Assembly: GCA_036653755.1 (NCBI GenBank)
Contig: JAVVTJ010000021.1
Coordinates: forward strand, 1 to 15,625
From: Clostridia bacterium
Lineage (GTDB): Bacteria > Bacillota > Clostridia > TANB77 > CAG-465
Length of the DNA stretch: 15,625 bases
Reading direction: 5' to 3'
Numbering within the stretch: position 1 is the first letter of the stretch; each line of letters starts with the position of its first letter. The position numbers and the translations under genes are program-made. Shown piece after piece: positions 11,197 to 13,680 of the stretch. The notes under the pieces are model-generated. The model was given only the letters and a program-made list of their open reading frames with translations, was not told the DNA's origin and searched no databases.

Positions 11197-13680
11197 ATGA
11201 AAAAAAGAGGAATAAGTTTAATAGTACTTGTAGTAACAATAATCGTCATAATAATATTAGCAGGAGCAGTAATACTGTCTTTAACAAATAACAATCCAAT
11301 AAATGAAGCAAATGAGGCATCATTTAAAAGTGAACTTAAAAGTTTAGATGAACAAGTACTGTTATCAATAACAAAAGGATATATAACAGACAACAATATA
11401 ATGAGCAAAAAAATAACAAGTAGTGATGAGTTATATAAATATATGGAGCAACTAAAAGGAAGTAAATATGATGGAAAAGTATATATAACAGAAGGAAGAT
11501 TAACAATAAACGCAAGTAAATTTACAAAAGAACAAATACAATGGGCAATAGAAGCACAAATAAAAGTAGGAGACTTGCCAGTAGTAAAAACAGTAGAGCT
11601 AACATCAACTGAAACAGCAATAACAGCAAAAGTAACAATGGATAGTACATCTGGAATAATAGGATATATGTATAAAATAACAGGAGTAGGAATAAATGTA
11701 GAAGAATGGATAACAAAACCAGAAAGTACACACACATTTGAAAACTTAAAAGTAGGAACAGAATATATAATAGAAGTAAAAGCAAAAACAAATGAATTAG
11801 AATCAATATCACATATGAATCAAATAACAACAAAAGGAGTAAATGAACTAGTATCATTAGTTCCAAATACATCAGAATGGACAAAAAACAATGTAACAAT
11901 AACAATAAGTCATGCAAATATACCAGTGGGATATGAATTACAATATAAAATAGGAAGTGGAAATTGGCTTAAATATACAAGTGCAGTTACAGTAGATACA
12001 AATGTTGCAGTATATGGAAGACTATATAATACTGTGTTAAATGATGAAATAGGAGCAAATCCATATGATGTAACAAACATAGATAAAACAAATCCAACAA
12101 TACCAACAGATATAACAATAACAAATAATATAAATAGTATAGTAGTTCAAGCATTAGGAAGTACAGACAGTCAAAGTGGAATAATAGGATATGAATATTC
12201 CATAAATAATGGCGCTACATGGACATCAGCTAAAACAACAACACATGAATTTACAGGAATAAAAGCAGGAACAAATGTAGTAGTAAAAGCAAGAGCAAAA
12301 GATAAAGTAGAAAATTATTCAACAGTATATGAAAAAAATACAAGTACAACAAATATATCAGGAAAAGTATCAGTATCACCAAATACATCAGAATGGACAA
12401 AAAACAATGTAACAATAACAATAAGCCATGCAAATATACCAGTGGGATATGAATTACAATATAAAATAGGAAGTGGAAATTGGAATAAATATACAAATAT
12501 AGTTACAGTAGATACAAATGTAACAGTATATGGAAGAGTATATAATACTTTATTAGATGATGCAATAGGAGAAAACTCATATAATGTAACAAAAATAGAT
12601 AAAACAAATCCAACAGCAATAACAAATATAACAGAAATAACAAAAACATCAAATAGTATAACAGTTCAAGCAGTAGGAAGTACAGATAATCAAAGTGGAA
12701 TAATAGGATATGAATATAGCATAAATGGAGGATTATATAGCTCAGCAATAACAGGAAATAAACAATTTACTTCATTAACACAAAATACACAATATACAAT
12801 AAAAGCAAGAGCAAAAGATAATGCTGGAAATTATTCAACAGAAAAAGCAATAAATATAACAACAGTATCAACATGGGATAAACCATACATACCAGTAGGA
12901 TTTAGTAAATCAACAGTATCAGGAGAAACAGAAGTAGCAACAGGACTAGTTATAAAAGACAATAATAATGGAAATGAATTTGTATGGATACCAGTAGCAA
13001 ATTTTAGTAATTTTAATAGAGTAGAATATAACAAAGGAGTGACAGTAGCACAGTGCATAGAAGATAAAGCGCAGCCAGAACTATCAGCAATATATACAAG
13101 TGTACAAAAATATGGAGGATATTATATAGCAAGATATGAGGCAGGACTTCCAAATATAACATCACCTGCAACATCAAATCACGGTACAGTATATAATGGA
13201 ACAATAAAACCAGTATCAAAACCAGGAGTAAGTCCATGGAACTTTATACCATGGGGAACAAATAATGATATAGCAAATCCTGGAAATGGAGCAGTAACAG
13301 TAGCAAGAAGTATGTATAAAACAAATACAGATATACAGTCAACATTAATATATGGAGTACAATGGGATGCAGCACTTGAGTTTATAAAAAATTATGGAAT
13401 AAAAGATACAGTATATCCAACAGATTCAACAAATAAAGGAAATTATACTGACTCATTAAAAGTAACAGGAGCAAGCACAGCATACAAATTAAATAACATA
13501 TACGATATGGCAGGAAACGATTGGGAGTGGACAATGGAGGCGTACTCTGCTTACAGGGTTTTCCGTGGTTGCTGCTGCTACAGCGTTGGTGCTAGCTCTC
13601 CAGCCGGCTACCGTAGCAACAACGTTGTCAGCAATAGCTACGATTACTGTGGCTTTCGTCCTGCGCTTTACATAAAATAA
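11197..13680 (+). CDS. DGR target (variable) protein. Architecture: pilin-like N-terminal hydrophobic anchor, three FN3-like modules interleaved with Ig-like modules, C-terminal FGE-sulfatase/C-type-lectin-fold ligand-binding domain carrying the variable region.
   Basis: N-terminus MKKRG-ISLIVLVVTIIVIIILAGAV. FN3-like segments each contain SGIIGY(M/E)Y...(V/I)KA(K/R)AK. C-terminus WDAALEF...NIYDMAGNDWEWT...RVFRG...YCGFRPALY is the signature of DGR CLec-fold targets. avd and a DGR RT lie directly downstream. Confidence 0.9.
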   Translation: MKKRGISLIVLVVTIIVIIILAGAVILSLTNNNPINEANEASFKSELKSLDEQVLLSITKGYITDNNIMSKKITSSDELYKYMEQLKGSKYDGKVYITEGRLTINASKFTKEQIQWAIEAQIKVGDLPVVKTVELTSTETAITAKVTMDSTSGIIGYMYKITGVGINVEEWITKPESTHTFENLKVGTEYIIEVKAKTNELESISHMNQITTKGVNELVSLVPNTSEWTKNNVTITISHANIPVGYELQYKIGSGNWLKYTSAVTVDTNVAVYGRLYNTVLNDEIGANPYDVTNIDKTNPTIPTDITITNNINSIVVQALGSTDSQSGIIGYEYSINNGATWTSAKTTTHEFTGIKAGTNVVVKARAKDKVENYSTVYEKNTSTTNISGKVSVSPNTSEWTKNNVTITISHANIPVGYELQYKIGSGNWNKYTNIVTVDTNVTVYGRVYNTLLDDAIGENSYNVTKIDKTNPTAITNITEITKTSNSITVQAVGSTDNQSGIIGYEYSINGGLYSSAITGNKQFTSLTQNTQYTIKARAKDNAGNYSTEKAINITTVSTWDKPYIPVGFSKSTVSGETEVATGLVIKDNNNGNEFVWIPVANFSNFNRVEYNKGVTVAQCIEDKAQPELSAIYTSVQKYGGYYIARYEAGLPNITSPATSNHGTVYNGTIKPVSKPGVSPWNFIPWGTNNDIANPGNGAVTVARSMYKTNTDIQSTLIYGVQWDAALEFIKNYGIKDTVYPTDSTNKGNYTDSLKVTGASTAYKLNNIYDMAGNDWEWTMEAYSAYRVFRGCCCYSVGASSPAGYRSNNVVSNSYDYCGFRPALYIK
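11851..12864 (+). repeat. Intragenic tandem duplication (two ~516-nt / 172-aa units, each an Ig-like module plus an FN3-like module)
   Basis: 11863-11967 and 12379-12483 are identical at 104 of 105 nt. The remainder of the units aligns with scattered substitutions (aa 219-390 versus 391-556). Confidence 0.9.
13537..13675 (+). other. Putative DGR variable region (VR) at the 3' end of the target gene
   Basis: Abrupt composition switch. By hand count, 13541-13670 has 21/130 A and 69/130 G+C, against 32/60 A in 12361-12420 of the same gene. Codons change from mostly NNA to almost exclusively NNY (TGC TGC TGC TAC AGC GTT GGT GCT AGC ... AAC AAC GTT GTC AGC AAT AGC TAC GAT TAC). Two A-free runs, 13556-13579 and 13647-13669. 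Boundaries are approximate because no TR is available for alignment. Confidence 0.75.

Follow-up and report, generated by a model that had tools for sequence, protein, structure and literature searches.

The diversity-generating retroelement (DGR) of Bordetella phage BPP-1, arranged mtd-avd-TR-brt, combines a reverse transcriptase (RT) bearing an IGxxxSQ motif with the accessory protein Avd, adenine-specific differences between a template repeat (TR) rich in AAC codons and a variable region (VR), an asymmetric 3′ end in which the initiation of mutagenic homing element (IMH) of the VR differs from its counterpart in the TR (IMH*), and, immediately past the 3′ end of the TR, a structured RNA (Sp, the Rfam motif RT-10). 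The same traits recur, with RT-14 as the structured RNA, at a locus in the genome of a Clostridia bacterium. The stretch that we analyzed, hereafter the window, comprises 15,625 nt at 24% GC (positions 1 to 15,625 of contig JAVVTJ010000021.1), and an earlier note made from its letters alone had proposed that the 3′ end of one gene is a VR recognizable without its template. We conclude, with a probability of roughly 0.93, that 13538-13670 is the VR of a chromosomal DGR in a very AT-rich Clostridia genome, proposed to diversify the ligand-binding face of a surface protein's C-type lectin (CLec) domain.

The locus departs from BPP-1 in its setting and layout. Whereas the BPP-1 DGR is phage-borne and places its TR between avd and RT, the DGR of the window is chromosomal and has its TR downstream of RT; BPP-1 has a GC-rich hairpin after the IMH, in contrast to the pair of long, AU-rich hairpin elements and the CACTG-NN-CACTG motif found here, and its CLec is of the Mtd subtype rather than the formylglycine-generating enzyme (FGE) subtype. 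The Treponema denticola DGR likewise has its VR at the C-terminus of an FGE-subtype CLec on a cellular, non-phage surface protein, and it serves several paralogous targets, as close relatives of the window genome also appear to do (P0002 and P0006, below). Its variable protein TvpA (2Y3C) is, however, a lipoprotein with 15% sequence identity and a TM-score of 0.42 to the window protein, which is 827 aa long with a seemingly pilin-like N-terminal segment and three Ig-like modules. The DGR of Legionella pneumophila Corby and other DGRs with a MutS-like (MSL) gene (Wu et al. 2018, PMC5758913) carry a small MutS_I MSL gene beside avd, as do two loci related to the window, L019 and L020. In the window the MutS_I core appears to have been deleted, and the RT is of a different lineage from that of Legionella, whose target LdtA is a lipoprotein on a Gram-negative surface. 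Beside the thousands of cellular DGRs already catalogued, one more changes little on its own. Nevertheless, in a genome of 24% GC with hardly any NNC codons, composition alone picks out the DGR VR, and this signature could help to find orphan or remote targets in AT-rich genomes when the TR lies on another contig.

Template and composition of the variable region

The TR lies just outside the window. It was read from L001, a public 2,214-nt contig of the Logan assembly of SRR25820368 that we retrieved by an exact-protein look-up of the RT, and which equals window 13765-15625 at 1,861/1,861 positions before running on for 353 nt. VR and TR align over 133 nt without gaps at 83% identity, and 18 of the 23 mismatches fall at TR adenines (12 A>T, 5 A>G, and 1 A>C), which make up 40 of the 133 TR positions (hypergeometric p = 1.7e-7). 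Upstream of the IMH-like end, in 13538-13648, TR adenines account for 18/19 mismatches (hypergeometric p = 3.9e-9). Within the window itself, repeat finding and an adenine-tolerant scan detected no TR; a scan with the 93 non-A TR positions matched only the VR, at 88/93, with the runner-up site at 41/93.

Read in the frame of the VR, the TR encodes K A N S T N R V I R G G N Y N N D G A S N P A G N R N N N D V S N S N D N I G F R P A L. Its 13 AAY codons, together with GAT, TAC, ATC, and ACT, are set in a scaffold of mostly A-free codons (GCG, TCT, GTT, CGT, GGT, GGC, and GCC), and the 25 codons open to adenine mutagenesis allow ~10^23 protein variants, as computed from the TR. A template of this design had been predicted from the VR before any TR was in hand, and the prediction stands with one correction: AGC, AGG, and CCA retain an adenine, so that A is not wholly excluded from the scaffold. 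The C-terminal end of the family alignment of the target, RVxRGGxYxxxGSxxPxSYRSNxxxxxxxxYxGFRxALYIK, is variable exactly at the adenine-containing TR codons.

The final A-to-N change falls at 13648, directly before an imperfect repeat of the TR end with a G+C-rich core, TTTCGTCCTGCGCT. This repeat differs from the TR end by four non-A differences, at 13649, 13650, 13653, and 13668, and a C-to-T/G difference that lies two bases short of where the homology stops is also present in the related DGRs L019 and L020. By its sequence, 13649-13670 is an IMH-like end that matches the imperfect IMH/IMH* pair expected of a DGR, with a putative function in homing, and a boundary of this kind had already been proposed for the A-free, GC-rich end of the gene.

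The VR is also an island of unusual composition. Among all 133-nt segments across the full length of the window, the minimum A fraction, 0.158, occurs at starts 13535-13539 and the maximum GC, 0.549, at starts 13509-13536; the VR itself has A 0.165 and GC 0.534, the latter corresponding to z = 4.4 against all segments. The body of the target gene has an A content of 0.490 +/- 0.039 per 133 nt (minimum 0.406), which places the VR ~8 sd below it. Third codon positions have A 0.65 and C 0.04 in the gene body, whereas in the last 48 codons they switch to A 0.08, C 0.46, and T 0.38, and third-position C is just 0.01-0.04 in the housekeeping genes of the window (rpoD, mcsB, clpC, and others). Arginine is encoded by AGA in 9/9 cases in the gene body and by CGT (three times) and AGG (once) in the VR. 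The two A-free runs of the VR, at 13556-13579 (24 nt) and 13647-13669 (23 nt, CTGTGGCTTTCGTCCTGCGCTTT), have one counterpart of at least 23 nt elsewhere in the window, in T-rich intergenic sequence at 11028-11051. The TR is milder in composition (A 0.30, GC 0.50), although it too stands well apart from the 24% GC genome, and the VR is more extreme because 18 adenines became T, G, or C. The island as a whole arises because scaffold codons must avoid A, variable codons are AAY, and homing swaps the adenines of the VR for mostly non-A bases.

These figures agree closely with the earlier note. Its count of 32 A in the 60 positions of 12361-12420 was reproduced, its hand counts of 21 A and 69 G+C in 130 nt are each off by one (20/130 and 70/130 at 13540-13669), and its description of codons ending in C or T, of Arg passing from AGA to CGT, and of two A-free runs of 23-24 nt holds apart from the single AGG. 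Its limits for the VR, 13537-13675, are within a few bases of the template homology, and the sliding A count and codon-usage comparison that it had suggested as a check give the lowest A of the window in the VR and the third-position switch.

A comparison of the last 135 nt of homologous CLec genes, although a small sample, agrees with the claim that such a VR is recognizable without its template, since the signal follows linkage to a DGR. The tails with a confirmed TR (the window, L019, and L020) have A 0.13-0.16, GC 0.53-0.60, and third-position A 0.02-0.07, and those of L007 and of L004, which is avd-adjacent, are similar. The tail of P0005 (L005 1620-1755), which has no link to a DGR, is host-like (A 0.36, GC 0.33, third-position A 0.40), and that of P0008 (L006 9150-9285), with no linked DGR, is intermediate (A 0.30, GC 0.41). 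The CLec ends of L005 and L006 act as natural negative controls for this signature, and both may once have been targets whose composition has since returned toward that of the host.

The genes beside the VR are those of a DGR. The cassette runs in the order target gene, two structured repeats, MSL remnant, avd, RT, TR, and RT-14 RNA, with avd overlapping the start of RT by 11 nt. The RT carries the two motifs of DGR-type RTs, [ILV]GxxxSQ in motif 4 (IGNYSSQ at residue 195) and YxDD in motif 5 (YMDD at 227), and the former is specific to DGRs (Zimmerly and Wu; PMC5758913). In the NCBIfam scan the RT matched profiles for the RTs of group II introns, Drt, and retrons, all of them below threshold, and avd matched DivGenRetAVD at E = 4.9e-22 (78.2 bits, just under the cut-off of 80).

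Alternative readings and the likelihood of recent homing

The GC of the VR, 0.53 against 0.24 for the window, and its C-rich third positions could suggest that a foreign domain end was brought in by recombination, or that a segment with no template was acquired horizontally. That origin is refuted by a template with adenine-specific differences ~2 kb downstream, beside avd and RT, and the rest of the CLec domain (12871-13536) is of ordinary host composition, so we give it practically no credence. We attach as little weight to chance or to an amino-acid effect of a C-terminus rich in Gly, Ser, Arg, and Cys: the VR does encode many G, S, R, Y, and C residues, but the shift is the extreme of the whole window, the homologous C-terminus in L005, of similar sequence and with no DGR link, keeps host composition, and the synonymous choices for Arg and at third positions shift as well; these last two findings refute this explanation.

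A few observations do weigh against the reading of 13538-13670 as the VR of a DGR. Five mismatches to the TR lie at non-A positions, four of them in the last 22 nt and one, G>T at 13570, internal. The latter turns TR GGC into VR TGC and removes a Gly conserved in the family (RGG to RGC), so that the first residue of the Cys-Cys-Cys run, which the earlier note had taken for a random draw and not a selected sequence, stems from a non-canonical change and not from adenine mutagenesis. The single change at 13570 does not refute the DGR model and could be a mutation that followed homing. The expectation that all mismatches would fall at TR adenines thus held for 18 of the 23, and the accompanying view that any non-A mismatch would refute a DGR is too strict, because the IMH differs from the IMH* by design and non-A-to-N substitutions are found in 23% of catalogued DGRs (PMC5758913). 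Moreover, the TR was read from a different assembly than the 16,167-nt NCBI contig to which the window belongs, and we infer its identity with the window's own TR from the identical overlap. The MSL gene present in the close RT relatives L019 and L020 is probably cut to 34 codons in the window, and dnaG (372-2163) and clpC (7332-9759) are each split into two open reading frames (ORFs) by a frameshift, which in clpC falls near 8960-8970, at its Walker A motif. That two essential genes are frameshifted inside 15 kb is suggestive of indel errors in the assembly, or else of gene decay.

These same features would fit a fossil, a genuine VR/TR pair and cassette that no longer diversify the target and leave the present VR allele frozen: the conserved Gly has been lost to an internal non-A substitution, MSL is a remnant, two nearby housekeeping genes are frameshifted, and the Cys-Cys-Cys run appears unselected. 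We consider this unlikely, if less so than the readings from composition. The RT and avd frames are intact, the RT motifs are kept, and the TR, the IMH-like end, and the RT-14 RNA are all present. MSL occurs in just 16/372 DGRs of the catalogue (PMC5758913), and the system would thus not necessarily fail without it. Upstream of the IMH, 46% of TR adenines differ in the VR compared with 1/72 non-A positions, and therefore there has been little neutral decay since the last homing. Judged from the DNA, the intact RT and avd, the full set of cis elements, and the scarcity of non-A changes argue for recent homing.

For an active DGR at 13538-13670, the mechanism would follow that of BPP-1 by analogy (PMC5758913). 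The TR and the 3′-adjacent RT-14 RNA would be transcribed, and an RT-Avd complex would copy the TR into cDNA, placing random bases opposite template adenines. The cDNA would then replace the VR, with the 3′ limit set by the IMH-like end, whose difference from the IMH* of the TR would keep the transfer one-way. Up to 25 codons would be recoded on the ligand-binding face of the FGE-type CLec, at the tip of what may be a membrane-anchored or pilin-like surface protein.

Target protein, cassette relatives, and RT-14 RNA

Table 1. Coordinates of the VR, its template, and the surrounding DGR features (window positions except where L001 is named)
Feature	Position	Strand	Basis
DGR target gene, 827 aa	11197..13680	+	ORF; pilin-like N-terminal segment (candidate), Ig-like/OmpL47-type modules, C-terminal FGE-type CLec with VR
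N-terminal hydrophobic segment MKKRGISLIVLVVTIIVIIILAGAVILSL	11197..11289	+	Translation
C-terminal FGE-sulfatase-type CLec domain	12871..13677	+	AlphaFold2 model, Foldseek, homologues
Mutagenized part of VR	13538..13648	+	Ungapped alignment to L001 1938-2048; 18/39 template adenines differ
IMH-like 3′ end of VR GTGGCTTTCGTCCTGCGCTTTA	13649..13670	+	Imperfect copy of TR end TCGGTTTTCGTCCTGCGCTCTA
Post-VR motif GTAGCACTGTCCCCTG (CACTG-NN-CNCTG)	13715..13730	+	Also at L004 9308, L019 773, L020 245
Structured element, copy 1	13715..13902	+	RNA fold -51.7 kcal/mol, z = -4.9
Structured element, copy 2	13912..14100	+	RNA fold -58.3 kcal/mol, z = -6.4
34-codon ORF, candidate MSL remnant	14160..14264	+	Overlaps avd start; good ribosome-binding site
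avd, 123 aa	14242..14613	+	Pfam bAvd, E = 3.9e-18, 66.4 bits (cut-off 40)
DGR RT, 340 aa, intact	14603..15625	+	Pfam RVT_1, E = 4.9e-14; stop codon ends the window
TR	L001 1938-2070 (would be window 15702-15834, outside)		77 nt past RT stop; ungapped alignment to VR
RT-14 RNA, Rfam RF02921	L001 2066-2151 (would be window 15830-15915, outside)		51.0 bits (gathering score 48.1)

The fold of the target C-terminus is well defined by modeling. The last 269 residues have 465 homologues, and an AlphaFold2 model of the CLec domain built on the family alignment reached a pLDDT of 95.6 and a pTM of 0.93. In a Foldseek comparison with the Protein Data Bank the top match was T. denticola TvpA (E = 3.8e-5), a DGR variable protein, followed by an FGE paralogue (1Y4J), PvdO (5HHA), and the Thermus DGR protein TaqVP (5VF4), all with probability 1.00 and TM-scores of 0.38-0.49. 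The FGE-sulfatase family PF03781 matches 58/63 tested family members, with the window protein at 16-18.5 bits, below the 23.3-bit cut-off. At the level of the model, these data confirm that the target C-terminus adopts an FGE-type C-type-lectin fold displaying the variable residues.

The remainder of the protein contains three Ig-like modules, a match to the NCBIfam OmpL47-type domain (E = 4.8e-18), and internal 516-nt repeats in the gene. Its N-terminus, MKKRG|ISLIVLVVTIIVIIILAG, has the Gly and hydrophobic helix of a prepilin leader (KRG|ISLIVLVV) with Val in place of Glu5, and the family consensus of this segment is GITLVALVIT..LILAG. Pfam N_methyl (PF07963) gave no match in the window protein itself and weak matches, below or near the cut-off, in 13/63 homologues (best E = 3.8e-4). 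The segment could thus be a signal anchor or a prepilin-like leader that does not have the usual Glu5, and we treat the term pilin-like as a lead and not a finding. If borne out, a pilin-like N-terminus joined to a diversified lectin domain hints at variable adhesins in gut and anaerobe Clostridia.

The exact target protein is on record in no other assembly. The nearest relative genome, the metagenome-assembled genome (MAG) RR136, also labeled Clostridia bacterium, contains an orthologue of the target (P0002, 95% identity over the first 300 aa) and a second gene, P0006, with a CLec domain 85% identical and a different N-terminus; both sequences end before the VR. Judged from these two genes, a genome of the window's lineage would seem to carry several DGR targets.

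The RT has 3,790 homologues, the nearest at 55-59% identity; scans of genome and metagenome contigs yielded no close relative, and only RTs at 25-39% identity. L019 and L020, whose RTs are 53-55% identical to that of the window, have in common the gene order target, MSL, avd, RT, TR. Their VRs differ from their TRs at adenines in 26/36 and 28/29 cases, respectively, and have a GC of 0.54-0.60 in loci of 26% GC. The avd and RT genes have third codon positions of T 0.53-0.55, A 0.31, and C 0.01, and the target gene body A 0.65 and T 0.25, two different patterns of codon usage on the same strand and within 3 kb.

Related loci have a gene of 117-187 aa between target and avd. The copies in L019 and L020 match MutS_I, and that in L004 is a 117-aa ORF with no Pfam match on record. 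The 34-codon ORF found at this place in the window matches the ~20 N-terminal and ~8 C-terminal residues of MSL, with 41% identity to L020 over a short length in what is a weak alignment, and a blastn match at the start of the MSL gene supports it. It is probably an MSL remnant from which the MutS_I core was deleted in frame, with both ends kept.

A structured RNA accompanies the TR in four loci. In L001, RT-14 occupies 86 nt directly past the TR and does not include the last hairpin of the Rfam model; relatives score 56-87 bits overall, with L019 at 86.5 and L020 at 73 bits. In L001, L019 (3064-3209), and L020 (2605-2697) the start of RT-14 falls inside the last 5 nt of the TR, and among these three loci the sequence after the TR is better conserved than the TR itself. 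In L002, a Holdemanella DGR with its TR upstream of RT, RT-14 (5838-5978) starts ~3 nt past the last TR copy. RT-14 therefore trails the TR on whichever side of RT the TR sits, and it adjoins RT in eight more distant loci (among L009-L018). In the original description RT-10 alone was tied to a DGR, being the Sp region of BPP-1, the presence of other RT motifs in DGRs was a speculation, and the role of RT-14, in a retron or a DGR, was left open (Weinberg et al. 2017, PMC5737381). The steady abutment of RT-14 on the 3′ end of the TR fits a role in priming or as a spacer, like that of Sp in BPP-1, and its position suggests that it may be the Sp-like priming RNA of this DGR lineage.

Two of these loci have an appearance of multi-TR arrangements: the Holdemanella locus has three tandem TR-like copies (L002 5435-5834) before a single RT-14, and the metagenomic DGR L015 has three tandem RT-14 copies (3304-3982).

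Sequence downstream of the VR and chromosomal setting

A GC-rich inverted repeat downstream of the IMH is found in 34% of DGRs and is hence not universal (PMC5758913). After 13670 there is no G+C-rich short hairpin (cruciform) of the BPP-1 type; in its place an 8-bp inverted repeat of AT-rich sequence (13676-13713) precedes the CACTG motif and long hairpins. The motif GTAG[CA]ACTGNNC[AC]CTG, a direct repeat of the form CACTG-NN-CACTG, occurs 0-43 nt past the stop of the four avd-linked targets (the window, L004, L019, and L020), and neither the TRs nor the remote homologues L005, L006, and L007 are followed by it. By this distribution it may be a signal of the recipient site. IMG/VR matches to the 18-nt motif were rejected as unrelated GC-rich sequences.

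The two ~190-nt structured elements between the VR and avd are 89% identical, and each is headed by the post-VR motif. In copy 1 a small hairpin lies 5′ of a long one of ~100 nt at 13789-13888, and the long hairpin of copy 2 spans 13986-14086. Both copies fold far more stably than shuffled sequences (z = -4.9 and -6.4). Three compensatory pair changes between the copies and many G-U pairs in the long hairpin point to an action as plus-strand RNA, as far as sequence can indicate. No Rfam family matched the elements at E <= 1 (whole window) or E <= 10 (region alone), no phage match and no IMG/VR match to the core were obtained, the rest of the window contains no additional copy, and blastn gave no homologue among the related loci. 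We speculate that the elements and the CACTG-NN-CACTG motif form a previously undescribed module that acts in cis, as RNA or DNA, in this DGR lineage, marking the recipient VR in place of the BPP-1 cruciform or compensating for the deleted MSL, instead of being unrelated duplicated intergenic sequence, but we think this decidedly improbable. That the elements replaced the MSL gene was rejected, since the start of MSL (ribosome-binding site and ~20 codons) and its end persist downstream, in 14160-14264.

The window is a piece of chromosome, with dnaG, rpoD, and a ctsR-mcsA-mcsB-clpC operon, and the closest named relatives of its proteins are in Clostridia bacterium MAGs. An alternative genetic code was rejected as the reason why dnaG and clpC are split, since the pieces lie in different frames and no in-frame TGA joins them. 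A perfect ~22-bp inverted repeat at 5134-5195, after the ORF at 3683-5125, is probably a terminator or a plain hairpin; the Rfam match to mir-17 at this site (E = 2e-4, below the gathering score) was rejected as a spurious match to a perfect hairpin. Directly upstream of the target gene, a 262-aa ORF (9867-10655) matches the Tad4 (Thoeris inhibitor) domain at its C-terminus (E = 4.6e-21) and, weakly, RuvC/Ydc2-like resolvases. As an anti-defense-type domain in a chromosomal setting, it is possibly the remnant of a mobile element.

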